Shown: positions 31,060 through 64,000 of the stretch, piece after piece | Layout: every line of letters begins with the position of its first letter | How positions within the stretch are numbered: position 1 is the stretch's first letter | Source: an archaeon | GTDB taxonomy: Archaea; Nanobdellota; Nanobdellia; Woesearchaeales; GW2011-AR15 | DNA: 64,000 bases | Assembly: GCA_043826135.1 (NCBI GenBank) | Contig: JBDRQT010000053.1 | Coordinates: 4,266 to 68,265 of the forward strand | Direction of reading: 5' to 3' | Translations under genes and position numbers: made by a program | The notes under the pieces: generated by a model | The model's input: only the letters and a program-made list of their open reading frames with translations | What the model was told of the DNA's origin: nothing | Databases searched by the model: none

Positions 31060-31286
31060 TTTACGATTTCATACTCCTTTATCAGCAGGAACATGAACAG
31101 CATCAGGATGATTGCTCCTCCAAAAAGGAATGATATCCCTCTGATGAACATCTCTCCGGACCCTGCTAAAAGTATGTAGAAACCATACGCCATAATAGCC
31201 AGTCCCATCCACAAAAATTTATCCAAAACAAGTTTGAGAATCTCAAATTCTTCTGCTTGGGTTAGTCTTTTCTTCATTTTGAGCAC
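31056..31286 (-). CDS. Small membrane protein (76 aa, 2 TM)
   Basis: ORF overlapping the downstream pilin-like gene by 4 nt. Two hydrophobic helices. Confidence 0.35.
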   Translation of the reverse strand: MLKMKKRLTQAEEFEILKLVLDKFLWMGLAIMAYGFYILLAGSGEMFIRGISFLFGGAIILMLFMFLLIKEYEIVK

Positions 31287-31328
31287 CTCAAAATTGAGAC
31301 TACGAACACTAGTGAGTTTGTTTTCATT

Positions 31329-31889: not shown

Positions 31890-31970
31890 TATTAAATCAC
31901 CATGTTTTGGAGTTTTTAAACTTTTCTAATAGGAAACTTTAAGAATGACAACCAATACCTCAGTTTTTTA

Positions 31971-39295: not shown

Positions 39296-39423
39296 TGCGG
39301 GTGTAGCTTAGCCTGGTTATAGCGCTGGACTCATATATGCTTATGAGTGATGAGCCGTTTGGCGATGATATTCATAAGGCGCTAAGAAATCCAGAAGTCA
39401 CGATTTCAAATATCGTCACCCGC
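39296..39423 (+). tRNA. tRNA-Met (anticodon CAT; could alternatively be tRNA-Ile2) with a ~53-nt intron at the canonical 37/38 position
   Basis: Hand-folded. Acceptor GCGGGTG/CACCCGC plus discriminator A. D-arm GCT.AGCCTGGTTAT.AGC. Anticodon stem CTGGA/TCCAG with loop CT-CAT-A(A), interrupted after position 37 by 39335-39387. T-arm ACGAT-TTCAAAT-ATCGT. No encoded CCA. Confidence 0.7.
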
Positions 39424-39516
39424 ACTTATTTATTGGTTGGTGCAAATTGTTTGCTAATCCTAGGATAGAATGGCGAAATAGTATTAATATGACGAGAAGA
39501 GATTCAAGATTGCAGT

Positions 39517-45298: not shown

Positions 45299-45814
45299 AT
45301 GGTAGAATACTATATCACGGTTGCAGGTGAATCCATAAATTATGAAGGCCTTTTCACTATGAAAGACCTCTTTAGGATCATTGATAAATACTACAGGACC
45401 AAAGGTTTTGATAAGAAGATTGTTTTTGACGAGGAATACACGACTGATAAGGGCAAATACTTCCATCTCAAAACTCATTATTATAAAAAGGTGGATGCGT
45501 ATATTAGGTTAACGACAAGACTTTGGATTTACGTAAATGACTATGTTGTTGTTGAAAAAGAAGTAGAAGGCAACAAAATCAAGACAGGCCAAGGGAAAAT
45601 ATCTATAACCTTTGATGCATCTCTCCAGACAAATTATTTTGGTATTTATCCAGATACAGTACTTTTTTATTTTTTATTCAGGCTTCTTTATGAGAAGATA
45701 TTTGCCGGTGGAAAGATCAAGTACTGGGACCAAGTATCAAAGCACGTAATCAATGAACTAAAAACTGAAATAAGCAGCTATCTCAACCTGAACAAGTTTT
45801 TGTACGAGAGATGA
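45299..45814 (+). CDS. Hypothetical protein, tandem paralog family member 1 (171 aa)
   Basis: Shares the N-terminal block (INYEGLF...DLFRIIDKYYRTKGFDKKIV) and the C-terminal LNLNKFL(Y/F) tail with the 46435-46944 ORF. Confidence 0.4.
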   Translation: MVEYYITVAGESINYEGLFTMKDLFRIIDKYYRTKGFDKKIVFDEEYTTDKGKYFHLKTHYYKKVDAYIRLTTRLWIYVNDYVVVEKEVEGNKIKTGQGKISITFDASLQTNYFGIYPDTVLFYFLFRLLYEKIFAGGKIKYWDQVSKHVINELKTEISSYLNLNKFLYER

Positions 45815-45886
45815 ACTACAAAATTGTTTTGGATTTTCTCACAAACACAAATTATATAAACCAGTATACTTATTTATATACTGAAT

Positions 45887-46402
45887 ATGAACACAGATCT
45901 GGCAGATTATAGTTTGTACAATTTTCACAGAACCATAAAATTTAGAGGTATCTTTGATTTTGATGGTTTTTACAAATTTATGGTCAAATGGATTAAAGAT
46001 CATGATTTTGACTTCTACGAAACAAAGGTATGGGATTATCCGCCGTATAGGATTCATAAGCTAATGGGAAGGAAAAAAGTGAGTTTTTATTGCATGTTCT
46101 TGCTTCTGCCAGAAATCTGGGTTTGGGAAGCAAAACCAGTGGAGATCATAAAAAATGGAAGTACCCTGCATCTTACAGAAGGCCGCATGAAAGTTGTTAT
46201 AAATGGGGGATATATACTGGATTATGACGGAGATTTCGAAAAGGGTCCTGGTATGAAAAAAGTTGAGAAGTTTTTAATCGACAAATTAATGTATCATGAG
46301 AATCTTCTAAAATATTTTGATTACTTTGATTATTACCTCCATGATTATGTAACTGATGTCAAAAAATATCTGGAAATGGAAACAGCAAGTAACGCCTACT
46401 AG
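45887..46402 (+). CDS. Hypothetical protein, tandem paralog family member 2 (171 aa, divergent)
   Basis: Same size and position in the array. Weaker similarity (KFRGIFDFDGFYKFMVKWIKDHDF vs NYEGLFTMKDLFRIIDKYYRTKGF). Confidence 0.35.
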   Translation: MNTDLADYSLYNFHRTIKFRGIFDFDGFYKFMVKWIKDHDFDFYETKVWDYPPYRIHKLMGRKKVSFYCMFLLLPEIWVWEAKPVEIIKNGSTLHLTEGRMKVVINGGYILDYDGDFEKGPGMKKVEKFLIDKLMYHENLLKYFDYFDYYLHDYVTDVKKYLEMETASNAY

Positions 46403-46434
46403 CTTGCAATATTATTATAGGTAACCCAATAAAA

Positions 46435-46944
46435 ATGATGCGCGATGAGATTCAACATGTTGCGCTTGGAATGAGCGTAAACTATTCCGGACTTTTCAGA
46501 TATGTTGACCTTATGGCCATGATTGACACATTCTTCAAAAAGAAAGGTTACAGGAAACACATCATTAGCCATAATGAGGCTGTGAAAGATAAATTCAGAA
46601 ATGTTTCAATGCGTCTAAGACCATTTAAGCAGATCAAAGGCAACAAACTGGAGATACAAATGTGGCTAAATATTACTGAGATGGAGGATATTTCAAAAAA
46701 GATGGATAACTTAAATGTGAATATGAACAAGGGCAAGGTGAGTATAGTAATTGACTGCTTTGTCCTTACGGATGTTCGAGGAAAATGGGAAGCTCGCGCA
46801 GAATACACATTTATCAGGACCATATTTGATAAACTTCTGTTCCGTTCTAAATCTAAAGACCTTGAAGGTATGGTAAAAAGTGACAGTGTTGAACTCAAAG
46901 ATGAGCTTCAGAGCTTTTTAAATCTTAACAAGTTCCTTTTCTGA
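46435..46944 (+). CDS. Hypothetical protein, tandem paralog family member 3 (169 aa)
   Basis: VNYSGLFRYVDLMAMIDTFFKKKGYRKHII and the C-terminal LNLNKFLF align with member 1. Confidence 0.4.
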   Translation: MMRDEIQHVALGMSVNYSGLFRYVDLMAMIDTFFKKKGYRKHIISHNEAVKDKFRNVSMRLRPFKQIKGNKLEIQMWLNITEMEDISKKMDNLNVNMNKGKVSIVIDCFVLTDVRGKWEARAEYTFIRTIFDKLLFRSKSKDLEGMVKSDSVELKDELQSFLNLNKFLF

Positions 46945-48041: not shown

Positions 48042-49115
48042 ATGACTGTAGAAGTTTCTGTAATACTGCCATGCAGGGATGAAGAACTTACGCTGGAGAA
48101 ATGCATTAGGCAGATTAAGGCGGTATTTAAGAACGAGAATATTTCAGGGGAGATAATTGTTTCTGACTCTTCAGGGGATAGGAGTCCTCAGATTGCACGA
48201 GAGAATAATGTAATTCTTGTCAAACATGATGAAAAAGGCTATGGCAATGCAATACTTAAAGGGATTGAAAAATCCAGCGGTAAATTAATAGTAATAGGTG
48301 ACGCAGATGCCACTTATGATTTTTCTGAGATGCCCTTGCTTCTCCGAAAACTGAAAAATTGTGATTTGGTTGTTGGGACCAGAATGCGTGGCAGAATAGA
48401 CAAAGGGGCAATGCCACTACATCACAGATGGTTTGGAAATCCTATCCTCTCATTTATTTTGAACACATTTTTTCATACAAATCTGTCTGACACTCACTCT
48501 GGATTTAGAGCGATCAGAAAAAATAAACTAAAAAAATTGGACCTGAAATCATCCGGAATGGAATTTGCCTCAGAAATGATAATAAAAGCTGCCAAATCAA
48601 ACCTCAAAATATCCGAAGTTCCCATATCTTATCATGTTAGACATGGTTCATCCAAATTAAGGAGTATAAGTGATGGTTGGAGGCATTTAAGATTTATGCT
48701 TATGCTTACACCCACGTACCTATTTTTTGTTCCTGGATTATTATTAATGTTAACAGGATTAACACTGATGGGACTAACCCAATTGCATTTTTTTCCGAGA
48801 TTTGAACTGGTCGGTATGTCCCTAAGCATAATTGGTTTTCAGGTGGTTACTTTAGGGCTGTTTTCAAAGATTTATTCAATCCATACAGGATTTGAAAAGG
48901 ATGACTGGTTCATTGATTTTCTTGCAAAGAAGATTACACTGGAAAGAGGTATTCTAATTGCAGGATTGATGATACTTACCGGAATCATCGGATTTTTGCC
49001 ACCATTTCGAAGCATTGTTTCAGAAATCGCACTTATCACCTTGATAATTCTGGGAATACAATTTTTTTTCTCTGCATTTTTTACGAGCATCATGCTCGTG
49101 GAAAAGATAAAATGA
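48042..49115 (+). CDS. Glycosyltransferase family 2 with C-terminal TM helices (DPM synthase / GtrB-like)
   Basis: VSVILPCRDEE, IVSDSSGD, DADATYD (DxD). C-terminal hydrophobic segments. Confidence 0.7.
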   Translation: MTVEVSVILPCRDEELTLEKCIRQIKAVFKNENISGEIIVSDSSGDRSPQIARENNVILVKHDEKGYGNAILKGIEKSSGKLIVIGDADATYDFSEMPLLLRKLKNCDLVVGTRMRGRIDKGAMPLHHRWFGNPILSFILNTFFHTNLSDTHSGFRAIRKNKLKKLDLKSSGMEFASEMIIKAAKSNLKISEVPISYHVRHGSSKLRSISDGWRHLRFMLMLTPTYLFFVPGLLLMLTGLTLMGLTQLHFFPRFELVGMSLSIIGFQVVTLGLFSKIYSIHTGFEKDDWFIDFLAKKITLERGILIAGLMILTGIIGFLPPFRSIVSEIALITLIILGIQFFFSAFFTSIMLVEKIK

Positions 49116-50872
49116 AAAAACTGTTTTTTGCACTGATATTCATCATGATTTATTTGGTGGCAAAACCGCTACTTTTATTTATAGTTCCTGGTATTTTTGT
49201 CTGGAAATTATTTCCAAAAAAAGAAAATTCAGAGAAAGCCATATATGTTGCATTCATTTCCATAAGCTTTTGGATAGTTTCATTTTGGATACTTAAAATC
49301 CTGCCTATCAGCATGCTTGACTTTTTTAATATTGTAATTGCACTATGTTTTTGTTCACTCTTGATTTGGTATCCAATGATATCATTTAAAAAAAGAGATC
49401 TCATTATAATTGGAATATTTTTCATAATAATCATTGCCAGATGTTTGCCTTTTATCATGGGTCATTTTCCCAGCGGAGCTGATACAAGTTTTCATGTGCT
49501 TACTACAAAAACCATTGTTACCACGAATGGTTTTCCGGAAAAATATAGCATCATACCACTTCCATTTGGTGGTTATCCGATAGGTTTCCACATTTTCTCT
49601 GCTTATATATCTCTGGTCTCAGGAATCCCGGAGTACAAATCAGTGCTGCTTCTCTCAAATTTATCATACGCTCTTCTGTCGCTTGCTGTATTCGTGTTTC
49701 TAAGAAGATATTTTTCTGATACCATTTCACTTGCTGGCGCTGCGCTGGTTCCGCTGATCGCAAATAACCCACAATTCTTCATATCATGGGGAGGTAACCC
49801 TTTTGTATTCTCTCTTTCAATACTTTTTGTGGGAATTTCGCTTCTTGAGGATAAAAAATTAATTTCGCTCGCAGATAGCCTTGTAATCGGACTAGTATTT
49901 TGCGCATCATTTATCGCGCATCTTACTCCGGCCTATGTTTATCTGTATATTTACTTAATCTGGTACATCTATAGTAAGAAATATTTGATTAGATCTTCGC
50001 TAAAATCACACCTAGTTCTGGCACTAATCTGCATCTTGCTTCTGATGCCGTTTATACTTTCTTATGAAACAAGAATATCACCTGATGAAATTACATTTAG
50101 TGAAGAACGGCAGGACACAAAATTCCTGTCTTGGAAAGGAACCTGGCAAGATTCGGTGTTGACAATCCCAAATTTCATAAATTATCTTTTCGGACCAATA
50201 TTAATTACATTCTGTCTTTTGGGCCTATTATTTATGTTCACAGGGAAAAAACTATTGTCAAAAATAGTTGTGTATTTCAGCGTTATATTCATCCTGATTC
50301 TCAGTTCCAGGTATAAGTTCATACCTATATCGGATGTACTGTTCTCAGAAAGGACTGCGATGATTCTGCTTTTGCCCTTATCAATATTGTTTTGTGAGTT
50401 TCTTGCAAATATTACAAACAGAAAATTAACACGTAATTTATTTCCGGATAGCAAACTTGCTATGCCTGTTCTTCTTTCAATTGTTATCGCCTATCTGTTT
50501 TTCGTATCAGCAACAAATTATCAGCACTATCTTAGGATATCTGACACCTACAGTATGGTTACACCCGATGATCTTGACGCGTTCTCATGGATCTTGAATA
50601 ATACTGATAGCACTGATTATTTTATAACAAATTATGGCGATGCTGGTCTTTGGCTGCCAGTTCTGACAGATAGGCCTGCACTTCAGATGCAGCTGCCTCC
50701 TATGTATTTAGATGAATTCAATGAATTCCAAGAAAAACAGGTATCGAAATATATCTTCTTCGGCAGTAAAAAAGTATATGAATGCGACCTTAGAATTGAA
50801 GATTATAAATCAGATGAATATGAAATTGTTTACTCAAAAAAAGGTGTTACAATATTCAAAATAAAGCAATGA
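49112..50872 (+). CDS. Polytopic membrane protein, candidate GT-C-type glycosyltransferase
   Basis: 586 aa with more than 10 TM helices. N-terminal loop HFPSGADTSFH. Translationally coupled (4-nt overlap) between two GT2 genes. Family assignment tentative. Confidence 0.4.
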   Translation: MKKLFFALIFIMIYLVAKPLLLFIVPGIFVWKLFPKKENSEKAIYVAFISISFWIVSFWILKILPISMLDFFNIVIALCFCSLLIWYPMISFKKRDLIIIGIFFIIIIARCLPFIMGHFPSGADTSFHVLTTKTIVTTNGFPEKYSIIPLPFGGYPIGFHIFSAYISLVSGIPEYKSVLLLSNLSYALLSLAVFVFLRRYFSDTISLAGAALVPLIANNPQFFISWGGNPFVFSLSILFVGISLLEDKKLISLADSLVIGLVFCASFIAHLTPAYVYLYIYLIWYIYSKKYLIRSSLKSHLVLALICILLLMPFILSYETRISPDEITFSEERQDTKFLSWKGTWQDSVLTIPNFINYLFGPILITFCLLGLLFMFTGKKLLSKIVVYFSVIFILILSSRYKFIPISDVLFSERTAMILLLPLSILFCEFLANITNRKLTRNLFPDSKLAMPVLLSIVIAYLFFVSATNYQHYLRISDTYSMVTPDDLDAFSWILNNTDSTDYFITNYGDAGLWLPVLTDRPALQMQLPPMYLDEFNEFQEKQVSKYIFFGSKKVYECDLRIEDYKSDEYEIVYSKKGVTIFKIKQ

Positions 50873-51546
50873 TTGCTGTGATAATTCCTTGTCTTAATGA
50901 AGAAGGCTCAATAGGTAATGTAATTATATCTGCAAGATATGCGTTGAAAAAGTCAAATCTTAAGAGTAAAATAATTGTTGTGGATGATTTCTCAGATGAT
51001 GCGTCCCTGACCAAAATTACAGAGGCTGATATAATTATTCCTCTCAAGGAAAGGATGCCTGTAGCTGAGGTAATTAAAGTTGGAATAAATGAAGCAATGA
51101 AGCTGAAGCCAGATATAATCATTCATATGGACGCTGACGGACAGCATAATCCAGAAGATATTCCGAAATTAATCAATCCTATTAGTGAAGGAAAAGCAGA
51201 TATGGTCATAGGAAGCAGGTTTCTTTGCAAAAATAAGATATCGCATCGAGCTGAAAATCTGATATTGACAAGACTAGTGAACATGATCGCAAAAACGCAC
51301 CTTACTGACACCCAAAGTGGTTTTCGGGCTATAAGATATAATATTCTTCAAAAGATCCCATTAATATCTAAGTTTACGTATACTCAGGAAGAAGTTATCA
51401 AAGCAGCAAGATTAGGATGCCGGATAAAAGAAATTCCAATTAAAGTGCTTAGCAGGAAGCATGGCAGGAGCAGAATATCCGGCAATACCTTGAATTATGC
51501 AGCAAAAGCCGGCTTTGACTTGATAAGGATAATGCTAAATAATTAA
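50869..51546 (+). CDS. Glycosyltransferase family 2
   Basis: IAVIIPCLNEEGSIG, VVDDFSDD, HMDADGQH (DxD), SQSGFRAI. Confidence 0.7.
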   Translation: MIAVIIPCLNEEGSIGNVIISARYALKKSNLKSKIIVVDDFSDDASLTKITEADIIIPLKERMPVAEVIKVGINEAMKLKPDIIIHMDADGQHNPEDIPKLINPISEGKADMVIGSRFLCKNKISHRAENLILTRLVNMIAKTHLTDTQSGFRAIRYNILQKIPLISKFTYTQEEVIKAARLGCRIKEIPIKVLSRKHGRSRISGNTLNYAAKAGFDLIRIMLNN

Positions 51547-51571
51547 AAGCAGCTCAATTTACTAAAGTATC

Positions 51572-52708
51572 ATGAAGATTGCCATTGTATACGATCTTAT
51601 TTACCCTTTTTCCATCGGAGGCGCTGAATGGCGTAATTTTTCACTGGCAAAAGAACTTGTGCTAAGGGGACATGAAGTCCATTTGTATGGCACTAGAATG
51701 TGGAAGGGAAATAACACAATAAAAATAGCTGATAGATTTTTTGCTCATGGTATATACTCTTATTCAGGCAAATATGGATTTGGAGGGAAACGGAAAGCGC
51801 TCGAGCCTCTTATCTATTCATTGCATCTGTTTTTTGAACTGTTGAAAAGGGACTACGATATCATTGATGTTTCTTCATTCCCATATTTTCCTGCTTTAGC
51901 ATGCAAGGCCGCATCATTTTTTAGTCGAACACCTGTAATAGTGACATGGCACGAAGTTTGGGATACTTATTGGAGAACTTACAACCGAGGAATGATTGGG
52001 ATAATCGGTCAAATGGTTGAAAAATTTCTTGCGGCCCTATCCAATAAAAATATTGCAGTATCTAAATCAACAAGGCAACGACTTCTTCAATTTCGATGCA
52101 AATCCGTTCTAATAGAGAACTGGGTTGATTACAAAGAGATTGAAAAATTCCGTAACGATAAAAAGATTTATGATATGGTTTCGGTAGGACGGCATTTGAA
52201 ACACAAAAATATTGGAATGATGCTGAGAATTTGCTCTGCTCTCAGTGTGCATAGTCCGAAGTTCAGAGCACTTATCATAGGAGAAGGTCCTGAAACACTT
52301 AATCTGCTGCAGATGAAGCATTCTCTAAAACTTGACAATGTTGAGATAATCAGCTTTACAAAAAACAAAAAGAAGCTATACGAATATATATCAAGCGCAA
52401 AAATTTTTGTACTTGCTTCTGAACTCGAAGGATTCAGCATCGTATCATTTGAAGCAATGGCTCTTGGCCTGCCTGTTATCACAATTGATGCAGCTAGAAA
52501 TGGCCTGACAGACTATATAATTGATGGTTACAATGGTTTTGTCTGCCATAAGAACGAGAGCATAATTGCATCAAAGATTGAGCTTCTTCTCAAAGACAAA
52601 AAACTCTTGAGCAAAGTGAGCATAAATTCGCAAGATTTTGCAAAAGGATTTGATATAAAATCAAAAGTTGAGTTAATAGAACAAGAATACAAAAAACTTG
52701 CAAAATGA
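51572..52708 (+). CDS. Glycosyltransferase family 4 (GT-B fold)
   Basis: EGFSIVSFEAMALGLPVITID matches the GT1/GT4 E-x7-E-like motif. N-terminal IAIVYD...FSIGGAE. Confidence 0.7.
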   Translation: MKIAIVYDLIYPFSIGGAEWRNFSLAKELVLRGHEVHLYGTRMWKGNNTIKIADRFFAHGIYSYSGKYGFGGKRKALEPLIYSLHLFFELLKRDYDIIDVSSFPYFPALACKAASFFSRTPVIVTWHEVWDTYWRTYNRGMIGIIGQMVEKFLAALSNKNIAVSKSTRQRLLQFRCKSVLIENWVDYKEIEKFRNDKKIYDMVSVGRHLKHKNIGMMLRICSALSVHSPKFRALIIGEGPETLNLLQMKHSLKLDNVEIISFTKNKKKLYEYISSAKIFVLASELEGFSIVSFEAMALGLPVITIDAARNGLTDYIIDGYNGFVCHKNESIIASKIELLLKDKKLLSKVSINSQDFAKGFDIKSKVELIEQEYKKLAK

Positions 52709-53625
52709 TATCATTCATAATACCTTATTACAATAGTTACGTAACACTAATAAAGACCTTGGATTCAATTTATTCATGCAAAATAAAAAAATATTTTGAA
52801 GTCATAATTGTTGATGATGGATCAACCGATGGCAGTGTTTTAAAAATAAAAAAATTGTACCCTAGGACGATTATTGTCAGGCAGGCACATTCTGGCGGAG
52901 CAAAAGCCAGAAACACCGGAATTAAAAGAGCAAAATATGAAAAGCTATTTTTTATGGATAGCGATGTTTCAATTGATGAAGGTTCCTTTAAAAAAATTAT
53001 TGGTGCTTTGACAGCAAATCATGACATCGCCTTTCCTCAGATAATATATGAAGATGGAATGATAATGTATCCTGCCAAGCTAAGCGAAGAACGTTATCCT
53101 GGTATTAGCGCATGCTTTGCCATCAATAAATCTTCTCTGGCTAAACTTGATGGGCTGTTTGACGAATATTATAATACTTATCTAGAAGATTATGATTTTT
53201 TCGCAAGATGCAAACTCGCTGGTCTTACTGCTGAATATGTAAAATATGCTGTTGCAGTTCATTTGCTAAAATCCGAAAGAGATTTCACCTCCAGATTTTA
53301 TCTTGAATTCAAAAACCTTGTGTACGGTTATATCAAATTCTCTAAATATCCGGAAAAGTTATATAATCCTTTTACACCATTCAATATATTTAAGGCATCA
53401 ATCTGTTCTCTGTTCAATTTCGCATGGTTTAACTGGCAAGGATATCCAAGAACCTCATCTATTGGCAAATTAAGAGTCATTATTCTTAGAAAAAACAAGA
53501 TATCAAATAATTGGTTTGCTCTCCAGTCAACTTTTTTCAAAGCTGCAGCAACCTTAATTTCTGACAGGAAAAAAATAATGAGAAAAAAACAAAAATTCAG
53601 TCGCTGGTGCCAAGGAATCTGTTGA
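52705..53625 (+). CDS. Glycosyltransferase family 2
   Basis: ISFIIPYYNS, IIVDDGSTDGS, FMDSDV (DxD). Confidence 0.65.
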   Translation: MISFIIPYYNSYVTLIKTLDSIYSCKIKKYFEVIIVDDGSTDGSVLKIKKLYPRTIIVRQAHSGGAKARNTGIKRAKYEKLFFMDSDVSIDEGSFKKIIGALTANHDIAFPQIIYEDGMIMYPAKLSEERYPGISACFAINKSSLAKLDGLFDEYYNTYLEDYDFFARCKLAGLTAEYVKYAVAVHLLKSERDFTSRFYLEFKNLVYGYIKFSKYPEKLYNPFTPFNIFKASICSLFNFAWFNWQGYPRTSSIGKLRVIILRKNKISNNWFALQSTFFKAAATLISDRKKIMRKKQKFSRWCQGIC

Positions 53626-55492
53626 TATCTCCTTCCATAAATGTTTTGTTCCAAAGAATAAAATTAGTGAGGGTCCAGAGCTGCCTTGAATAATACAAAT
53701 TTGTGAGACTATTTAGTTTTAGTAATTTCGAAGAAATGAATCTTTTATGATTAAGGAGATCAGAGACATACTCCTTCTTAAAATATCTCCTGACTGTCTC
53801 CGCCTCTTCTGAAAAAAGCTGTTCTGCATATTCCTTATATCCCCTGTCCATCCAATTGTCTGTCGGCACCAGAAATCTCTGCTTTTTTCTCCTTATGATG
53901 TTTTGCGGCAGAATATCTTTTAATGATTCTCTTATGATTGATTTATCTTCCCATCCTTTGATCTTGTATTTCAAGGGGAGTGATGCGGCAAATTCAGCTA
54001 TCCGATGGTCACAATATGGCACGCGGCCTTCCACTGAGCTTGCCATGGTCATCTTATCATATTTTACAAGCATATTGTCAGGAAGGAATGTAATAATATC
54101 GTGATAGCTCATCTTACTCAGTGGTGAGTGGGCATGCATGAACACCTTGTGCATTCTTTTCTCGACGCGCGGCAAATCAATGGCACCCATAATAGAATCA
54201 TTCACAACTTTCTTTTTTTCGCTCGTGCCAAAAACTGATATAAGGGCATGATAAGATTTTTCCTGCGAATTGTCAGGTGAGATAAAATCCTTAAGTTTCA
54301 TAAAAAACGGCTCATTTGATTTTTTAGTGGCTTCATACACACATGTTCTGAAAATTTTCGGTAATTTAGAGTAATATTCATGCAATTTCATGAGCTTATA
54401 TTGTTCATACCCGCAAAATAATTCATCTGCTCCGTCTCCATTTATTAGTACTTTTACATATCTTGATGCTTTTTTTGAAAGAATATAGTTCGGGATAGAT
54501 GTAGGGTCTGCAATAGGTTCATCCAAATACCAGGTTATTTTTTGCAGATGCTTTATGCTGTCAGGTCCAATAGTAATTTCATGATGCCGGGTCCCAAATT
54601 CTTCAGAAATTTGTCTTGCTAAGTCAAACTCATTATTAAATCCTTCATCAAAACCTGCAGTAAATGTATCTATCTCCTGACTATTATCCATCATTCCAAC
54701 TACAGAACTTGAATCAAGCCCTCCTGAAAGAAGTACTCCGATAGGGACGTCACTGATTGAAACATCCTCTGTTGATTGTTTTAATAACTCTTTAAATCTC
54801 TTCACATAAAAATCTCTGTTGTAGTTGGTAATTTCAAAATTCAGTTCCCAATAACGCTTTACATCCAGAATATTGTTTGCAAACCTTAGATAATGACCAG
54901 GCAGTAGCTTTAAAATGTTTTTCAGCATTGTTTTTTGCCCAGTACAATATCTATAAGTGAGATAATCATTAAGAGCAGGGTAATTAACATGCTTAATGAG
55001 TTCATCATACGCAAGTATTGCTTTTATCTCTGAAGCAAATATAAACACATTGGAATCATGATAATAATACAAAGGTTTTATTCCAAGCCTGTCTCTTGCA
55101 ATGTAAATTTCTTTAGTGTTCTTATTATAAATGACGAAAGCAAACATTCCAGTAATATGTAATGCGCAGCTGTAGCCATACTCTTCGTAAAGATGCAATA
55201 CTACTTCTGTATCTGAATCTGTCTGGAATTTATGGCCTTTCTCCTGCAGCCTCTCTCTGAGTTCCTTATAATTATAGACCTCTCCATTAAAGAAAAGAAC
55301 AAGCGACCCATCCTCGCTTTCCATCGGCTGGTTTCCACCCTCAAGATCAATTATTGATAACCGAGTATAGCCAATCGTCATATTATCATCCTGAAAGACT
55401 GCGTCGTGGTCAGGTCCACGATGATGCAACAGCTTTTTCATGCTAATAGCTAAGTTTGCATCACTAAAATTAAACCCAAAAATCCCACACAT
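53597..55492 (-). CDS. asnB: Asparagine synthase (glutamine-hydrolysing)
   Basis: N-terminal MCGIFGF (Ntn Cys nucleophile), RGPD, PP-loop SGGLDSS, about 630 aa. Confidence 0.8.
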   Translation of the reverse strand: MCGIFGFNFSDANLAISMKKLLHHRGPDHDAVFQDDNMTIGYTRLSIIDLEGGNQPMESEDGSLVLFFNGEVYNYKELRERLQEKGHKFQTDSDTEVVLHLYEEYGYSCALHITGMFAFVIYNKNTKEIYIARDRLGIKPLYYYHDSNVFIFASEIKAILAYDELIKHVNYPALNDYLTYRYCTGQKTMLKNILKLLPGHYLRFANNILDVKRYWELNFEITNYNRDFYVKRFKELLKQSTEDVSISDVPIGVLLSGGLDSSSVVGMMDNSQEIDTFTAGFDEGFNNEFDLARQISEEFGTRHHEITIGPDSIKHLQKITWYLDEPIADPTSIPNYILSKKASRYVKVLINGDGADELFCGYEQYKLMKLHEYYSKLPKIFRTCVYEATKKSNEPFFMKLKDFISPDNSQEKSYHALISVFGTSEKKKVVNDSIMGAIDLPRVEKRMHKVFMHAHSPLSKMSYHDIITFLPDNMLVKYDKMTMASSVEGRVPYCDHRIAEFAASLPLKYKIKGWEDKSIIRESLKDILPQNIIRRKKQRFLVPTDNWMDRGYKEYAEQLFSEEAETVRRYFKKEYVSDLLNHKRFISSKLLKLNSLTNLYYSRQLWTLTNFILWNKTFMEGDINRFLGTSD

Positions 55493-55546: not shown

Positions 55547-56347
55547 TTATATTTTTCTTTTTGTCATTTGTTTCTTTTTGGAAGGCGCAGCTTTCGGCTT
55601 TTTGGCAGATTTGGATTTTTTGCCAGGCTTCTTCAGGTCTTTTTCAAGCTTGCTGAGCTCTTTTTCTATGCTCCTGAAATCATCTTTTGATTTCTTGACT
55701 CTTGCCTTCTTTGTTGATTTCTTTGGCTTCTTCTTTGACTTTCTTCTTTGTGTAGTCTCTTTCATAGTCACTATTCGAACAGGCTTGATTATGTGAGTCG
55801 TCTCTACTACCTGGATTGACTTATTCTTGGTTGAGCCACCAGCGCCCTGCGGTCCCTCCGGAGATGCCACCGGCTCTTTCTGGTCAATATCGCCTTTCTT
55901 AATGTGTCCGGTGTATTTCAGAGTGTCCTCTATTATCATCGCTATCATCTTGTTGTCTTTCCAGCCCCTGGACAAAAGGTTCTGCTTTATCTGAGATGGC
56001 GCCATGTTCTTTGACAGCGCCCATAATGTGTAGTTCTGTATCTTGTATAGATCAGGCGCTAGCCTCTTCAAATATATCGTGTCTGTATCCTCCTCAAGGT
56101 CCGCTATCCCCTTCTGGAACTCAAGCAGGTTCCCTGCTTCCTTCTCCTCAAAACGCTTGATCTCATCAATGTCACTCATCTGATCATGCTCCATGCGTTC
56201 CAGCTCTTCCAGGTCTTTCTGCTCTTCTACTGTCAGCTTCTGAAGCTTCTGAAGCTGCATCAGTATCATCACAAGAAAAAATAAGAAAACTAATACCAGA
56301 ACTAAAAATAGCTCCGGCAGTGGCAGATTTATTCCGAAAATTAACAT
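55547..56347 (-). CDS. Membrane-anchored coiled-coil protein with Lys-rich basic C-terminal tail
   Basis: N-terminal TM helix, acidic coiled-coil, C-terminal KSKKKPKKSTKKARVKKSK...KKPKAAPSKKKQMTKRKI. Confidence 0.4.
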   Translation of the reverse strand: MLIFGINLPLPELFLVLVLVFLFFLVMILMQLQKLQKLTVEEQKDLEELERMEHDQMSDIDEIKRFEEKEAGNLLEFQKGIADLEEDTDTIYLKRLAPDLYKIQNYTLWALSKNMAPSQIKQNLLSRGWKDNKMIAMIIEDTLKYTGHIKKGDIDQKEPVASPEGPQGAGGSTKNKSIQVVETTHIIKPVRIVTMKETTQRRKSKKKPKKSTKKARVKKSKDDFRSIEKELSKLEKDLKKPGKKSKSAKKPKAAPSKKKQMTKRKI

Positions 56348-56355
56348 CTAATCAC

Positions 56356-59300
56356 TCATCCCAATCTGACTTTGATTTCCACTTTTTTTCTTGGCTCCTT
56401 GTCAAGAGACAATTTGCTTGTGCCGCCGACACTTACAAGCTTGGTTGCAAGAGGTTCGTATAGGTATCCATAAATCTCTATACCCTTTCTTTTAGGCAGG
56501 CAGTATGGGTTTGATACAAAGTCACCTGTGGTGATGCCGCTAACATCAACATCTCTCAAATAGTCAACTATAAGCAGTGGACTGAACAACATTTCAGGAT
56601 CAATGATATTTAACTCAATGTCAGCCGCAGTTAGCCCAGGTTTATTTATGACATATTTGAGGTTGAGGCAGCTGCCGTCGTCTTCAGGATCTGGAGCAAT
56701 CTTGATTGCGGGGATATTGACATTAAATGTTATTTCCTTTGTCATAGCAATCCTTCCTTTAACATCAATGGTCATGGCATCGCTTGTCTTTTTGGCATTC
56801 TTTACATAGACTGCAGTTTCTAATTCCTGTTTTTCTCCAGACTGCAAGCTGCCAACTTGGAAACTGTTCCTATCTGCTTTCATCCCGCTAGGAAGCTGGA
56901 CATCTATCGTCATTGCTTCGCTCGTGCTGGTCATCTTATTCTCAACTGTAATACTCAGGTCGAACACACCGAAAATATCTACAGCCTGCATTGAAGTCAT
57001 ATCTATCGTGACCCTTTGACTTGCAGAACAATCTGTTTCAACCGTACCATCGCAGTTTTCGTCGACATCATTTCCGCAGATCTCCTGCATCGCTGGACTT
57101 ATGTTATCGTTGTTGTCATTGCAGTCTGTTCCGTAGTGGCAAGAATCTGATTTTAGATAGTAACCATCATCATCGCTGTCGACACAGTCCCATAAACTCT
57201 CACCGCCGTCAGAAGCTGCACAAAGTTGCACTCCGAAATCACAAATTGCTCCGTCAACGCATGAATCCTGTTTCCCAGCACAGTCAACGCATGCGCATCC
57301 TTCCCATGCCTGACAGACACCATTTGGTGGTCCGATGCAACCAGCTTTTACCATATGATCTTCACAAGTGTCATCACAAGTAGCATCTAGGCAAAGAGTT
57401 GTGCCTGGTTGACATGAAGGTGCATTCCTTGGCATTAAACATACCCTGCTCACCCAATCACATATAAGACCTGTCTTACAGCTATCTTTGTTAGCATAGC
57501 AGTCGTCACAAAGGCAACCCTCTCCAAATTCACATATTCCATTTGGTATTCCGCTACATTCTGTCTTTCCTCCACGTGTTGCACATGTTGCATCACATGT
57601 CTTGTCATTGCACATTGTTGTTCCGCTAGTGCAGCCGCAAATCTGGGCACTGTCGCATGCAGCTCCGTTTGTGCAGCTTCCTTGCTTATCAGTGCAGTCT
57701 ATGCAAGCGCAACCTTCTCCGACTTTGCATACGCCATCTGCAGGACCTACACATCCCATATTAGCTGTATCTGTCTTGCTGCAGTCCTGACTGCAGGTTC
57801 CGTCCCTGCAAAGAGTTGTTCCCGGCATGCATGGGCTAAATATCTCCTCGCATTTCTTTGCTGTTGTATTCCATGAACACAAAAAGTTGGTCTTGGACCC
57901 ATAGCATGTATCAAAATGACAGCTTGCTTCGTTATTGTATTTTGAACAATCCATATTCGCTGGACAGTCCACACAAGTGTCACCGGCATTTGTGAATATC
58001 ATCGACATGATATCATATGTGCTTGCAGTGTCCACCAAATAATCTGAACAATCAAATAGACATTCTTCGTAGTCACAGTTTATTTTCATTCCCCACAGGC
58101 TCTCTCCACAAGCAGTACTAGCTGCACATGACAGTGCACATTTAGGGCTTGACCACTGGAAAGGATTCTTGAGCGGTGTTATTTTTCTTTCTGTCAGATA
58201 GATATTGTTCATTGATTTTGATCCTGAATATTCAAGGTCATATGTCAGCATGGCGCTTGATGAGTATATCATGCAATCTACATCATTGTTTGTCCTGCTT
58301 TCAAATGTGAGCTGGGTACCAGTTGATGTCATCACATCAGTAGGCTCAAATCCTATTGTCTTTGCCTTTTGAATACCTCCTGTGACTTTGCCTTTTGCAA
58401 TATGCTCAGTGCCATCCTGTGAATATGCACATACGTAATAATTGCAGTTTGCTTCCCAGATATAGATTCCATTGTAATCGAAATAGGGTTCATCCACAAG
58501 TCCGTCACAGTCATTATCTTTTCCGTCTATTGTGAACTCAGTAGTCTCGGTCTGCACGCATGCGTTGCCGCAGAGTTCTGTCAGATAATTGCATTCAAGA
58601 CCTGATACGCAGCTATCCTGTTTGTTGCTGCAATCCTTGCATGCGCAGCCTTCTCCAAGTTCGCATATCATATTTTCTGTAATGCATCCCTGGTTTGCAG
58701 TATCAGTTACTGCGCAGTTCGCGCTGCATGTATTATCTACACATAATGCTGTTCCTGCTGGGCAGCCGCAAAGTCCATCCACTGAGCATACTGCGCCCTG
58801 TGTACAGCCCCTGTTCTGGCCTGTGCAATCTGAGCAGCCGCATCCCTCATCTGCTCCGCAAACTCCATTTGGCGCACCAACACACCCGAGTCCTGTGCAT
58901 TCTGGACTGCAGGTTCCATCTGCACATTTGCCTGTTCCAGGTGCACAATTTGTAACTTCGCATGAGCAAGTAAGTTTATTGCACTCTCCGCCAGGACAAT
59001 CTGAATCCTGGTTGCATCCACCGCAATCAAGTTTATTGCAGGTTGCATCATAGCTGCAGCCGCATATCACATCTGTGCATTCATCTTTCCTGACATACTG
59101 GACATGGCTTCCTGCATCACTAGAACAATATGTCTCCTGGCAGTTGAACTGAGGATTTTCGCTTACAATGTCGCATGCCTCATCCGAACCAAGTTCTCCG
59201 TCACCGCATCTCGAACAATCTTCTCCCAAATACTCAGCACAAAAGTCCAGGTCTGCCTGATCAAGAACAGGATCCTGGTTTGCATTATACTGATCAGGGT

Positions 59301-60762
59301 TCACACATGAGCCTTCTGTTGCTTTTTCAGCTAGGATACAGCTCTGGATTGCTGCATAGTCATACTCATCCACAGCGCCATTAGTGTTAATATCACATCT
59401 TTCGCAGCCTGATTTGCAAGTTGTCTGCGCAACAACATTCCATTCAAAATTTGTACATGTGGCTGTTAGTCCACCTTGCTTCAAACAATAATTATAACCT
59501 GCAGGTCTGCAAATCAGATTTTCATCTGCGCAGGCATATGAATCAGAGCAGCATGCGCTGTTTTCCATCTGAGTCCCATCGACATTTGTCATGTATGTTA
59601 TGCCAAATCTGGTTTTTGTTTCAAGCGGGATTTCACCAATATCATCTCCGCAGCACAGGCCAATATCATCATCAGGAAACCCATCCTGTCCCAATGTGCA
59701 CTCGTTATTATGATCGATATCGCAATCAAACCACTTCGAAAGTCTCAAATCAACATTATTTATCTTATCACAGGTAGCTGCATTAATATCTGCATCCGCC
59801 CATCCACCTTGCTTTCCGTCAAAAGACATGCACACTTCATATTCATTATCTGCACCATCGGCATAGACACCTGAATTCGTCTTGTTATATTGCCCATTAC
59901 GTTTGACACAGTCTGTTGGGTTTGGCGAGCACTGGGTTATACTGTCATCTGACAGGCAGCTGCTGTCCATGTCCCATTCTGCATAATAAGGAAGGCCTGG
60001 ATTTAAAACATAATCACTCTGCTGTCCATAATAATCATAAATATTACCGTCAACGCTTGACTCAGGATAGACAGGGCAGTAGAAAAAATTTAGATAAGTC
60101 AGGTCCATGTCTCTCTCTACATGGCAATTATATGTATCTTGGTCCAGTGTCTCTTTTATGGTATTTCTGTTCCCATCAATAGTAATCGTGACTCCTGGTT
60201 CCGGGCTGACATCAACTGTATCAGGAATTGTGAATGCATGCCTGAAGGTATAATCTTCCTGAGTATGGCTTGCATCTGTCCATGTGTCGCTCTGACCTGT
60301 TGAATACGCTACTCTTATAGTAATATCTCCGCAATAATGGCTATTTCCTTGGATTGTAAATGACCTGTTGTTCTCAGCAATACAGGGTTTGCTGACTGCA
60401 ACCCCATCTAAAGACGCGGGATTATACATACAAACATGACTCGTACACTCCGGACTAGCCTTGAATTTGCTTCCGCATTTATTAGTGCATGCATTTCCGC
60501 AGCCATTGCTGCCACATTCCCATGAACCTGGGCAGCTGTTATCACATCCACCCTCTTCACCACCACCACCACCACACTGTGGGCCAAAACAGCTAATGCC
60601 ACCATGGTCATTATAATAAGTTCCATAAGAGTGAACCTCGTGGTTTACTACATCTGCCGTTGTACCAGGATAAATTGTTCCTACCACTGAAACATTAAAA
60701 AATCCCATTGATAACAATAATACTAATACTAAACATACTAAAGAAACTACTTGATTTTTCAT
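56356..60762 (-). CDS. Giant secreted cysteine-rich multi-repeat surface protein (1468 aa)
   Basis: Signal peptide MKNQVVSLVCLVLVLLLSMGFF. At least 5 tandem ~60-aa Cys-rich modules of form C-x-D-x-TC-x3-C-x2-TDTAN-x-GC-x5-G-x-C-x3-EGCAC-x-DC-x2-KQDSC-x-G-x2-CD. Two MopE-like DNDCDG putative metal-binding motifs (GKDNDCDGLVDE; DCNDNNDNISPAMQEICGNDVDENCDGTVE). Cys-free beta-rich C-terminal region. Confidence 0.6.
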   Translation of the reverse strand: MKNQVVSLVCLVLVLLLSMGFFNVSVVGTIYPGTTADVVNHEVHSYGTYYNDHGGISCFGPQCGGGGGEEGGCDNSCPGSWECGSNGCGNACTNKCGSKFKASPECTSHVCMYNPASLDGVAVSKPCIAENNRSFTIQGNSHYCGDITIRVAYSTGQSDTWTDASHTQEDYTFRHAFTIPDTVDVSPEPGVTITIDGNRNTIKETLDQDTYNCHVERDMDLTYLNFFYCPVYPESSVDGNIYDYYGQQSDYVLNPGLPYYAEWDMDSSCLSDDSITQCSPNPTDCVKRNGQYNKTNSGVYADGADNEYEVCMSFDGKQGGWADADINAATCDKINNVDLRLSKWFDCDIDHNNECTLGQDGFPDDDIGLCCGDDIGEIPLETKTRFGITYMTNVDGTQMENSACCSDSYACADENLICRPAGYNYCLKQGGLTATCTNFEWNVVAQTTCKSGCERCDINTNGAVDEYDYAAIQSCILAEKATEGSCVNPDQYNANQDPVLDQADLDFCAEYLGEDCSRCGDGELGSDEACDIVSENPQFNCQETYCSSDAGSHVQYVRKDECTDVICGCSYDATCNKLDCGGCNQDSDCPGGECNKLTCSCEVTNCAPGTGKCADGTCSPECTGLGCVGAPNGVCGADEGCGCSDCTGQNRGCTQGAVCSVDGLCGCPAGTALCVDNTCSANCAVTDTANQGCITENMICELGEGCACKDCSNKQDSCVSGLECNYLTELCGNACVQTETTEFTIDGKDNDCDGLVDEPYFDYNGIYIWEANCNYYVCAYSQDGTEHIAKGKVTGGIQKAKTIGFEPTDVMTSTGTQLTFESRTNNDVDCMIYSSSAMLTYDLEYSGSKSMNNIYLTERKITPLKNPFQWSSPKCALSCAASTACGESLWGMKINCDYEECLFDCSDYLVDTASTYDIMSMIFTNAGDTCVDCPANMDCSKYNNEASCHFDTCYGSKTNFLCSWNTTAKKCEEIFSPCMPGTTLCRDGTCSQDCSKTDTANMGCVGPADGVCKVGEGCACIDCTDKQGSCTNGAACDSAQICGCTSGTTMCNDKTCDATCATRGGKTECSGIPNGICEFGEGCLCDDCYANKDSCKTGLICDWVSRVCLMPRNAPSCQPGTTLCLDATCDDTCEDHMVKAGCIGPPNGVCQAWEGCACVDCAGKQDSCVDGAICDFGVQLCAASDGGESLWDCVDSDDDGYYLKSDSCHYGTDCNDNNDNISPAMQEICGNDVDENCDGTVETDCSASQRVTIDMTSMQAVDIFGVFDLSITVENKMTSTSEAMTIDVQLPSGMKADRNSFQVGSLQSGEKQELETAVYVKNAKKTSDAMTIDVKGRIAMTKEITFNVNIPAIKIAPDPEDDGSCLNLKYVINKPGLTAADIELNIIDPEMLFSPLLIVDYLRDVDVSGITTGDFVSNPYCLPKRKGIEIYGYLYEPLATKLVSVGGTSKLSLDKEPRKKVEIKVRLG

Positions 60763-62340: not shown

Positions 62341-64000
62341 GTGGGGGTAAATCATTTTGTTGCTGGTTATGGTTCTCTTTATTCTAAAATTGATTCTCCT
62401 GATTTTGAGCATGGTGATTTTGCTATCTTAGCAAGCAACAAGGCCTTCACTAAGGGAGATATTACTGTATTTCTTTTCGGCAGGATAACTAATATGACTA
62501 GCAGCAGTATCAAATTAATAAATTTCCCGCATCAGGAAGAGTTGATTCTTAGATTATTCAAAGAAGAGGGAACTAAATTCATAACAAGACTAGATGGTTA
62601 TTTTTTGATCATGATAATTGATAAAAAAGAATTGTATGTCTTTAACAACAGATATTCAAATACCCAATGCTATTTCCTCAGGCAAAATAATTCTTTCATA
62701 TTATGTGACTCATACAAGCCATTGCTCAGATTTTTGGATAAAAAAGAGATGAACATGGATGTAATATCGCTATTTCTGAATTCAGGTTATTCCTATTCTG
62801 ATAAAATGCCTTTCAAGGATACTTATAGAATGGTACCTGGCTACTACATGATAATCTCAAAAAATAAATTTGATCAGAAACGATATTCTCAGATGAAATT
62901 TAGCAGGCTGCCTGTCAAAGACATCGATGCTGCACTTGATAAATATGAAGAGCTTTGGACCGATGCAATAAGGGATTTCCAGGCATTTAATGGTACAAAA
63001 AACCTCGGGAGCGCGCTATCCGGCGGTCTTGATACATCATGGGTAGTTTTCATGGCTGCAATGACTAGCAAAAAACCGCTTCATACTTATACCTGTTACT
63101 ATCAATATTCATTGTTCAATGAGCTTAAGGAATCATCCTATGTTACAAAAAAGATAAATGGAATCCATCACAAGATACCTGTTACAGAAAATGACCTAGA
63201 CCTGATCCCAGAGATGATTGATATTGCTGAAGAGCCGGTTCTATCATCATCTTTGTCTCTTTTTAAAATGATCAACACCGCAAGCAGTGATGTTGACACA
63301 CTGCTCACCGGAGATGGAGGAAATAATATATTTCATCATCTTTATCCTGTAAGTGAGATTCATAGATACATCAAAGATTGGCCTTATCTTCTCAGAAAAC
63401 TGTTTTTTCTCTTCATTGACGGCCTGGCAAGATTATCTGGAAATGAAAGATTGTGGGAGGCAAGATACCCTTTGCATGCGTTTTCATATCCGGATTTTTA
63501 TAATAATTTTTACAAGAATTTGACTTGCTACAGGCATTTTGACCCAATGCAAAGGAAAAAACTATTCAGGCCAAATGTCCTAAAAGAATTTGATGAAGCA
63601 AATATGGTTGGCCAGATCCCAATCAGGAAAAAAACTTTTAATGATGACCTTGTGAATGCTAGATTCACATGGGGTAATATGCAGTATGTGACAACATTCC
63701 ATGAAAAATTTGCAAAATCAAAAAACATGAATGTTTTTCCACCATACCAGAATCAGGCTCTGATGGACTTCATTTGTTCTCTGCCCTATGAGCTTCTGTA
63801 TAAAGGGAACACCTTAAAACGCCTAACGAACCGTGTATATAAAATGTATTTCCACAAGATGGCACTGAAACGGCATTTTCCCTCTTCCTTTGTTGACAAG
63901 GTCGGTCAGCCGTTTGACCAACCGTTCCACGGTTGGTTCCAAAGAAGGCCGGTAATTATTGAACTATTGATAGATAGCCTGAAGCGAAGAGGCTGGTATA
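62341..64000 (+). CDS. Asparagine synthetase-like PP-loop protein lacking the N-terminal Cys nucleophile (partial, runs off window end)
   Basis: Open frame from GTG 62341 to the window end (not in the ORF track because it is truncated). PP-loop SGGLDTS. N-terminus GVNHFVAGYG has no MCG, unlike the bona fide asnB at 53597-55492. Confidence 0.5.
   Translation, partial: MGVNHFVAGYGSLYSKIDSPDFEHGDFAILASNKAFTKGDITVFLFGRITNMTSSSIKLINFPHQEELILRLFKEEGTKFITRLDGYFLIMIIDKKELYVFNNRYSNTQCYFLRQNNSFILCDSYKPLLRFLDKKEMNMDVISLFLNSGYSYSDKMPFKDTYRMVPGYYMIISKNKFDQKRYSQMKFSRLPVKDIDAALDKYEELWTDAIRDFQAFNGTKNLGSALSGGLDTSWVVFMAAMTSKKPLHTYTCYYQYSLFNELKESSYVTKKINGIHHKIPVTENDLDLIPEMIDIAEEPVLSSSLSLFKMINTASSDVDTLLTGDGGNNIFHHLYPVSEIHRYIKDWPYLLRKLFFLFIDGLARLSGNERLWEARYPLHAFSYPDFYNNFYKNLTCYRHFDPMQRKKLFRPNVLKEFDEANMVGQIPIRKKTFNDDLVNARFTWGNMQYVTTFHEKFAKSKNMNVFPPYQNQALMDFICSLPYELLYKGNTLKRLTNRVYKMYFHKMALKRHFPSSFVDKVGQPFDQPFHGWFQRRPVIIELLIDSLKRRGWY

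Follow-up and report, generated by a model that had tools for sequence, protein, structure and literature searches.

Bacterial type IV pili carry a tip or priming complex made up of minor pilins and a large non-pilin adhesin, PilY1/PilC, with an operon of the type fimU-pilVWXY1E; the minor pilins carry the large PilY1-type protein, which presumably forms the adhesive end. This tip complex finds mention in PMC13190605. Cohesin–dockerin pairs are present outside cellulosomes in archaea such as Archaeoglobus fulgidus and the anaerobic methanotrophic (ANME) archaea (survey by Peer et al. 2009, as summarised in PMC9012536), and according to that summary such modules, on extracellular proteins of archaea that break down no cellulose, may hold functional proteins at the cell surface or bring cells into contact with each other. 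Here we describe a locus that resembles each of these systems in part. It lies in a 64,000-nucleotide stretch of DNA (contig JBDRQT010000053.1, hereafter the window) from a Woesearchaeales archaeon and consists of BIG, a gene for a Cys-rich secreted protein of 1468 residues (56356..60762, minus strand), and Krich, a gene for a small membrane protein directly downstream of it. Our reading, to which we give a probability of about one half, is that BIG is a surface protein knotted by disulfides and that a cohesin–dockerin pair plugs it onto a fibre resembling a pilus; this and all other functional statements about BIG rest on sequence, predicted structure and synteny.

BIG is a genuine ATG-to-stop open reading frame (ORF), located exactly where an earlier note on this DNA had placed it, and its full-length relatives, which are 35–44% identical to it, have their parts in the same order. 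A signal peptide is followed by a Gly/Cys-rich stretch, an N-terminal domain (~350 residues, 18 invariant Cys), a dockerin and a Cys-rich linker; then come two copies of a small module, a middle domain that opens with DNDCDGLxDEP, three further modules, a MopE-type motif and a Cys-poor C-terminal domain. The number of modules, which the earlier note had proposed to compare across genomes, ranges from 2 to 7 per orthologue. Scanning a single genome for each GTDB species yielded 35 loci, nearly all labelled Woesearchaeota, Pacearchaeota, Nanoarchaeota/Nanoarchaeia, Micrarchaeota or Iainarchaeum and including the complete 1.16-Mb genome of archaeon GW2011_AR15, while a few weak module-only matches were found in Peribacteria and in two deltaproteobacterial/myxobacterial metagenome-assembled genomes (MAGs). 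The alignments and this distribution define BIG as a conserved full-length family of Woesearchaeota-type DPANN archaea. The view that BIG is a giant protein secreted or displayed by an archaeon of the small-genome DPANN type is borne out, its relatives being nearly all from MAGs of Woesearchaeota, Pacearchaeota or Nanoarchaeota.

Five of the loci (L002, L004, L005, L009 and L013) share the DPANN-type arrangement and come from MAGs labelled 'uncultured Methanosarcinales archaeon'. These labels are probably wrong; in L002 and L004, the class I aminoacyl-tRNA synthetase encoded beside the locus is 64–77% identical to the copies in Woesearchaeota MAGs. On one metagenome contig (L038, 1064–9960), two full-length BIG paralogues stand in tandem and are followed by a single Krich gene.

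The part of BIG that points to a partner is the dockerin-like module at residues 453–516 (59215..59406, minus strand). The hallmark of dockerins is a duplicated unit of ~22 residues, a Ca-binding loop followed by a helix (F-hand), with D or N at positions 1, 3, 5, 9 and 12. BIG contains two such loop–helix repeats, with loops DINTNGAVDEYD (residues 457–468) and NANQDPVLDQAD (residues 493–504), both of which have D or N at the Ca-ligand positions and are conserved across orthologues (consensus CDxNxDGxVDxxDxTAI...YDxNxDxxVDxADxxxC). In all orthologues with an N-terminal domain, the dockerin comes next. Pfam family PF00404 (Dockerin_1) matches 10 of 11 orthologue segments, with a best E-value of 2.1e-5, and the BIG segment of the window falls just short of the 22.9-bit cut-off, with 22.3 bits (E 1.6e-4) by itself and 15.4 bits when searched within the whole protein. 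When a profile of 11 orthologue segments is compared with the Protein Data Bank (PDB), the top 17 consecutive matches are dockerins or dockerin-type chains, with E-values down to 3.3e-5. The AlphaFold2 model of the segment has three helices and an average predicted local distance difference test (pLDDT) score of 95.2, and the top 21 Foldseek matches to it in the PDB are all dockerins, with TM-scores of 0.54–0.69 for the first 20 and 0.46 for the 21st. Foldseek probabilities reach 0.98, although the E-values are 0.28 or above because the domain is short. The assignment of this segment as a dockerin is thus well supported by sequence profiles and the predicted fold.

A candidate partner is encoded next to BIG in related loci. 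In nine of the 13 informative distinct loci (all neighbourhood counts refer to distinct loci, with three duplicates removed), four small pilin-like genes are followed by a gene for a pilin-like protein of ~300 residues with a cohesin domain, then by BIG and Krich. The products of all five upstream genes begin like proteins with a class III signal peptide (KRG/Q, KKS/Q, KKA/Y, RKA/QISFEF), and pilin N-termini here read [KR][AS]-Q-[IV]-S-x-E-F-I. In archaeal type IV pilins a short basic stretch precedes [KR][GAS], then Q or a hydrophobic residue, and then a hydrophobic helix; MRKKSRKA/QISFEFIMIF and MKKRG/QVAVEYIMIV are examples from these loci that fit. The scores of the pilin-like proteins against Pfam Class_IIIsignal, 19.4–23.2 bits, lie just below the cut-off of 23.7. 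Cohesin family PF00963 matches the ~300-residue protein with 33.6–41.7 bits in six of eight cases, with 24.9 bits in the seventh and with 23.0 bits in the eighth (cut-off 24.1). The cohesin profile finds solved cohesins in the PDB at an E-value of 8.1e-7, and its top 13 matches are all cohesins. In L007, for example, the gene for the cohesin-bearing protein lies at 8711–9625, with the cohesin at residues ~140–304, and the adjacent BIG orthologue has its dockerin at residues 451–510. Apparent 'cohesin' and 'N-terminal domain' matches on other Cys-rich ORFs came from a search with hidden Markov models (HMMs) without composition correction and were rejected as false.

Similar to fimU-pilVWXY1E, these loci combine four or five small pilin-like genes with a following gene for one large (1000–1500 residues), Sec-exported, Ca-binding non-pilin protein. 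Unlike in the PilY1 system, attachment would be through a cohesin–dockerin pair instead of the C-terminal propeller of PilY1, no relationship in sequence or fold was detected, and the locus is archaeal and has an additional conserved membrane partner. As in the archaeal non-cellulosomal pairs, the dockerin and the cohesin belong to extracellular proteins, and both are recognised here by Pfam and by PDB profiles. The locus departs from those pairs in three respects: the cohesin is part of a pilin-like protein with a putative class III signal peptide, the dockerin lies inside a Cys-knot protein of 1468 residues and is bracketed by Cys, and in the related loci the cohesin and dockerin genes are direct neighbours in one operon.

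In the mechanism that we propose, BIG would be exported by the Sec pathway and act outside the cell as an acidic protein, in which the five modules are most likely compact, rigid spacers, each probably with six disulfides. The dockerin would plug BIG onto the cohesin of the last of the five pilin-like proteins, and by homology with cellulosomal and archaeal pairs this connection would depend on Ca. Since we infer that the dockerin binds the pilin-borne cohesin, BIG would be carried on a type IV pilus-like fibre or would belong to the complex that forms its tip or primes it. In this arrangement the N-terminal domain would be the exposed distal end and would probably bind a ligand or a host, and the C-terminal domain would work together with Krich, which may be an anchor or a transmembrane link. 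A more elaborate version, a 'plug-in' pilus in which the cohesin-ended pilin captures the dockerin-bearing, disulfide-knotted BIG and thereby equips the fibre tip for attachment to a host or surface while Krich couples the C-terminal domain of BIG to the cell, is put forward tentatively, with odds clearly below even.

The modules that would serve as spacers are arranged in two blocks on either side of a conserved domain of 244 residues, modules 1 and 2 (residues 606–666 and 667–733; 58564..58947, minus strand) and modules 3, 4 and 5 (residues 978–1043, 1044–1110 and 1117–1183; 57214..57831, minus strand). Where the earlier note had read at least five tandem decacysteine modules of ~60 residues, the five repeats are real, but they have 12 Cys, not 10, and are split 2 + 3 rather than forming a single array. 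They are about 61–68 residues long and 41–52% identical to module 1 in pairwise comparison, and their alignment has 20 invariant columns, of which 12 are Cys. A self-BLAST of BIG did not report the internal repeats, which were revealed by direct alignment of the modules. At the DNA level the copies are 46–61% identical, and their positions are conserved among orthologues, so the duplication is old, and recent tandem duplication is ruled out.

A profile of the five copies, compared with 1.84 billion cluster representatives, retrieves 126 proteins at E≤1e-3, 59 of them at E≤1e-10 and 24 at E≤1e-30, which places the repeat far outside what chance would give. The resulting family holds 231 complete module copies, 175 of which have exactly 12 Cys, with the consensus C-x2-G-T-T-L-C-x-D-G-T-C-x3-C-x8-C-x7-C-x3-E-G-C-x-C-x-D-C-x4-D-S-C-x2-G-x2-C-x6-C and with near-invariant acidic residues at D10, E38 and D44. 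As the relatives came from this exhaustive profile search and the genome scan, it may be added that word-indexed searches recovered only BIG itself with the full sequence, nothing with an alignment of 96 modules, and only proteins with MopE motifs with the full-length alignment. The AlphaFold2 model of module 3, which was based on the 96-sequence alignment and realises a check that the earlier note had suggested, shows a compact fold with a pLDDT of 94.7. Neither Pfam (even at E≤1) nor NCBIfam nor a profile search of PDB sequences gives a match to the module, and the best Foldseek match of the model in the PDB has an E-value of 5.9 over 21 columns. In agreement with the impression that the module consensus belongs to no known family, we regard the module, on the strength of these profiles, as a genuine, rare family absent from Pfam, NCBIfam and the PDB.

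In its general character the module is akin to EGF, TNFR and furin-like repeats, to the CXXC repeats of Giardia VSP proteins and to LDL-receptor class A repeats, all of which are small, secreted repeats with fixed Cys spacing and conserved acidic residues that might bind Ca. Unlike EGF-type repeats, it packs 12 Cys into about 66 residues and has a consensus of its own without a Pfam, PDB or Foldseek counterpart, and it matches no family model or fold of EGF, TNFR, furin-like, LDLa or DUF4215 type. The module is also found in other secreted architectures, for example in subtilases of 2200–2500 residues, some of which have a VWA domain, and in proteins in which it is repeated up to 12 times. It is often accompanied there by MopE motifs, which the module-bearing Peptidase_S8 and VWA proteins carry too. 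Such reuse would suit a structural spacer or a generic interaction module.

Export of BIG is indicated by its N-terminus. The Sec-type signal peptide (residues 1–28, with a putative cleavage site; 60679..60762, minus strand) belongs to the only hydrophobic segment of the protein, residues 1–32 (MKNQVVSLVCLVLVLLLSMGFFNVSVVG), and the orthologues likewise begin with K-rich n-regions, hydrophobic cores and AxA-like ends, which is in keeping with the secretion that the earlier note had read from the sequence. The protein has no [KR][GAS]Q class III motif in its N-terminus, so it is not a pilin, and no C-terminal anchor or further transmembrane segment. In the public gene call for an identical sequence (P0001, 1450 residues), the start lies 18 codons later; the gene is also present in the public run SRR26275510. 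The longer start is supported by a Shine-Dalgarno-like motif, AGAGGGG, ~8 nucleotides upstream of the ATG and by the orthologues that begin with classical Sec signal peptides; TATA-like TTTATAAA boxes are found farther upstream than the Shine-Dalgarno-like motif.

The striking Cys richness that had drawn attention to BIG amounts to 137 residues (9.3%), compared with 0.94% in 34 other proteins of the window. One Cys lies inside the signal peptide, which leaves an even number, 136, in the mature protein. The mature protein is also highly acidic, with a pI of 4.1 and a net charge of about −130. Across the gene, GC content is elevated at codon position 2 (46.6%) while at position 3 (37.8%) it is the same as in the neighbours; the rise thus reflects amino-acid composition, and horizontal transfer is ruled out as its source. 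Compared with Pfam, BIG as a whole yields three matches only: the MopE-type motif (45.6 bits), a weak match to DUF11 at residues 1263–1354 and a weak dockerin match at residues 457–512. It has no match in NCBIfam or the PDB sequence set, and phmmer with whole BIG against all PDB sequences returns nothing at E≤1.

Krich (266 residues; 55547..56347, minus strand) starts 8 nucleotides past the stop codon of BIG. It consists of a conserved N-terminal peptide of 12 residues (MxxFGxNLPLPE), one transmembrane helix, a coiled coil, a conserved helical domain of ~55 residues and a Lys-rich tail with a pI of 10.8 and a charge of about +28. Apart from noise from the transmembrane helix and the coiled coil, it has no match among Pfam, NCBIfam and PDB profiles. 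All 15 of the 15 distinct loci have Krich immediately downstream of their BIG orthologue, and in a reverse search of metagenome contigs with Krich alone, each contig that extended far enough had BIG as the preceding gene. Whatever protein is encoded just before Krich, it has the C-terminal domain of BIG. This holds even for two subtilases (Peptidase_S8) of 2200–2500 residues, P0010 (L013, 4958–12442) and P0020 (L016, 5579–12262), which have six to seven 12-Cys modules and the same C-terminal domain followed by Krich, and which are without the dockerin and the N-terminal domain. A full Krich is found in none of the 20 loci that have the module without the C-terminal domain. It is therefore to the C-terminal domain that Krich is tied, and by these sequence patterns the two together look like a generic tethering device for different cargos.

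In some orthologues of Krich, the Lys-rich tail is followed by a terminal Ada-type Zn domain (PF02805, 26.4 bits; L004 15950–16912, L013 12480–13562, L016 12320–13411), a hint at a cytoplasmic tail that may bind nucleic acid. Together with the positive-inside rule, the Zn domain suggests a topology with the N-terminus outside and the C-terminus inside, in which only the conserved N-terminal peptide could contact BIG. A further protein, of ~180 residues with five transmembrane segments (5-TM), is encoded divergently downstream of the BIG–Krich pair in 13 loci; as it has no Peptidase_A24 match, it was rejected as a candidate prepilin peptidase.

Several observations weigh against a cohesin–dockerin link to a pilus. 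The window itself contains no homologue of the cohesin-pilin or of the rest of the pilin set, as judged with the cohesin-pilin HMM and tblastn, so that here any cohesin for BIG to bind would have to come from a gene outside the window; the adjacent set is also absent in L006, L013 and L016. The examined loci have no neighbouring gene for a pilus assembly ATPase or a membrane platform. The Class_IIIsignal scores stay below threshold, NCBIfam recognises none of the pilin-like proteins, and the dockerin in the window falls marginally short of its Pfam threshold, with the weak Foldseek E-values of a short domain. Furthermore, the positive-inside rule and the Zn domain suggest that most of Krich is cytoplasmic, which would leave about 12 residues outside for BIG. 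Finally, the habitats of the relatives are mostly anoxic, as judged from sample names, where 68 extracellular disulfides are not assured and the Cys could bind metals instead. In favour of disulfides is the fact that the Cys count is even both in the module (12) and in the mature protein (136).

The arrangement of BIG and Krich also brings to mind SlaA and SlaB of the Sulfolobales, a large secreted protein and a small membrane-anchored coiled-coil protein. BIG could similarly be an envelope or surface-layer (S-layer)-like protein held by Krich in the manner of SlaA/SlaB, with a dockerin that only cross-links envelope components. The strict adjacency, with a gap of 8 nucleotides, of a large anchorless secreted protein and a small protein with a transmembrane helix and a coiled coil fits this arrangement, as do the complementary charges of BIG (about −130) and the Krich tail (about +28) and the constant company of the C-terminal domain and Krich, which extends to the subtilase-type relatives. 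However, neither protein is homologous to its Sulfolobales counterpart, BIG has no homology to any S-layer family, and Krich has its transmembrane helix at the N-terminus and a Lys-rich tail that is probably cytoplasmic; this tail and the Zn domain of some orthologues point to a cytoplasmic bulk of the protein. Archaeal S-layer proteins are usually heavily glycosylated, whereas N-x-S/T sequons are depleted in BIG (5 observed, 13.7 ± 3.3 expected). Moreover, BIG stands in a pilin operon context in nine loci, and a protease carries this anchor-type C-terminus in L013 and L016, which suits a generic tether better than a lattice former. We therefore consider an S-layer-like role unlikely, though the best placed of the alternatives to a pilus-borne BIG.

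In a second alternative, prompted by the MopE label, the Cys clusters and D-x-D-x-DG motifs would serve as ligands for Cu, Zn, Fe or Ca, no disulfides would form, and BIG would be a metal-binding or metal-scavenging protein. Among the remaining domains of BIG, the N-terminal domain (residues 100–452; 59407..60465, minus strand) has 45 invariant columns in the orthologue alignment, 18 of them Cys, and the middle domain (residues 735–977; 57832..58560, minus strand) has a mean column identity of 53% and opens with half a MopE-type motif, DGKDNDCDGLVDEP (residues 745–758). The C-terminal domain (residues 1248–1468; 56359..57021, minus strand), which has the weak DUF11 match, probably folds as a β-sandwich. 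Its Cys content is low: the last 218 residues of BIG are Cys-poor and not, as the earlier note had it, Cys-free, since the region contains two Cys. PDB profile searches with the N-terminal, middle and C-terminal domains find no relative among solved structures.

The MopE-type 'putative metal-binding motif' region (residues 1193–1241; 57040..57186, minus strand) is recognised by Pfam PF11617 (Cu-binding_MopE) in two stretches, well above the cut-off of 27 bits, and only residues 1213–1241 match the motif over its full length. The presence of MopE-like motifs is thereby upheld, but the literal DNDCDG occurs once (residue 749) and not twice as had been reported, the other sites being DENCDG (residue 1234) and DSDDDG (residue 1195). 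Besides this above-threshold match, the invariant acidic residues D10, E38 and D44 of the modules, the mostly anoxic habitats and the Ca-binding dockerin loops (by homology) would all be compatible with metal binding. Against it, BIG shares with PF11617 proteins only a D/N/C-rich motif of ~30 residues that by itself does not imply copper binding; no homology to MopE beyond this motif was detected by Pfam domains or by phmmer against the PDB, the 1468 residues contain a single complete copy of the motif and one half copy, and it is common in unrelated secreted proteins. The even, conserved Cys count and the confidently predicted compact fold of the module fit disulfide knots. On balance, a metal scavenger is improbable.

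The weakest alternative, that BIG is a substrate for post-translational modification by the neighbouring B12-binding radical S-adenosylmethionine (SAM) and AsnB-like enzymes, which the earlier note had raised, draws on a physical adjacency seen in this window only and is very improbable, being largely refuted by synteny. Homologues of the radical-SAM gene, the AsnB gene and the Cys-less AsnB-like gene are missing from the 10 kb around BIG in all 14 other distinct loci (L001, the same sequence in a public assembly, has the same radical-SAM neighbour). BIG has TATA-like and Shine-Dalgarno signals of its own, another B12-binding radical-SAM gene lies 20 kb away in the window, and the AsnB gene stands at the end of a glycosyltransferase island.

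The radical-SAM gene ends 86 nucleotides upstream of BIG. Beyond it, a divergent AsnB-like gene (~62341–64000, plus strand) runs off the end of the window; its product has an SGGLDTS PP-loop motif and no N-terminal Cys nucleophile, and no ATG start is present. The description of a Cys-less AsnB-like flanking gene is correct for this gene but not for the AsnB gene downstream of Krich (53597–55492), the product of which begins with MCGIFG and has the catalytic Cys. The latter closes a glycan-type island (48042–55492) that encodes, in order, a GT2 glycosyltransferase, a polytopic membrane protein of 586 residues, GT2, GT4 and GT2 glycosyltransferases and AsnB. The membrane protein has no Pfam match and is possibly a glycan polymerase or an enzyme similar to oligosaccharyl transferase. 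The best explanation for the adjacency of the radical-SAM and AsnB genes is that a glycan biosynthesis island was inserted beside the BIG–Krich pair.

Elsewhere in the window, the second B12-binding radical-SAM gene is found at 36078–37565 (minus strand), and two proteins with class-III-signal-like N-termini are encoded at 30490–31059 and 31329–31889 (both minus strand). Beside these two, a gene for a 5-TM protein of 187 residues (31971–32534, plus strand) is homologous (E 6e-9) to the 5-TM protein of the 13 related loci, and a second homologue of the latter is located at 19348–19905 (minus strand). The genes at 30490–32534 and 19348–19905 may be a relocated remnant of an ancestral cluster. 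Two other secreted-looking proteins are encoded nearby, a PKD/Big_9 protein (25391–26683, minus strand) and a transglutaminase-core protein of 663 residues with a signal peptide (26776–28767, plus strand). A tRNA gene at 39297–39424 (plus strand), recognised by Rfam with 53.2 bits and missed by ARAGORN, spans 128 nucleotides for a model of 71 positions, which implies an intron of ~57 nucleotides, an archaeal hallmark. The window also encodes a phenylalanyl-tRNA synthetase β-subunit with a B1 domain, a nucleotidyltransferase-domain protein of 646 residues with an unusual Met/Pro/Gly-rich insert, PPRMPFPQMQGGMGMPPGMGMPSMPTMGMGSPMAPG (42479–44419, plus strand), and three tandem paralogous ORFs of ~170 residues without family assignment (45299–46944, plus strand), two of which end with ...LNLNKFL[YF]. 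The B1 domain of the synthetase, the tRNA intron and the small class-III-signal-like proteins give the window an archaeal character.

In sum, cohesin–dockerin pairs outside cellulosomes, including those of archaea, Cys-rich extracellular repeats and giant surface proteins of DPANN archaea are kinds of systems that are already known. The 12-Cys module, the BIG family with its fixed membrane partner, and an archaeal cohesin borne by a pilin-like protein and encoded beside its presumptive dockerin cargo appear to be undescribed; a search of the open-access literature found no description of the BIG family, of the module or of an archaeal pilin-linked cohesin. Should the cohesin–dockerin pairing turn out not to be real, the locus would still establish a protein family that lacks annotation, together with a new domain of 12 Cys, and the idea of modification by radical-SAM enzymes would still be removed. 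Should it be real, the cellulosome-type connector would be extended to archaeal pili, and a very stable module of 66 residues and an orthogonal cohesin–dockerin pair might be of use in protein engineering.

How DPANN archaea attach to their hosts is largely unknown for the Woesearchaeota and Pacearchaeota groups, which are without cultured representatives. The locus offers a testable candidate for the attachment apparatus of this abundant uncultured lineage, and a 'plug-in' pilus, if true, would show type IV pili being armed in a new manner and would give the lineage its first molecular candidate for an attachment organelle.

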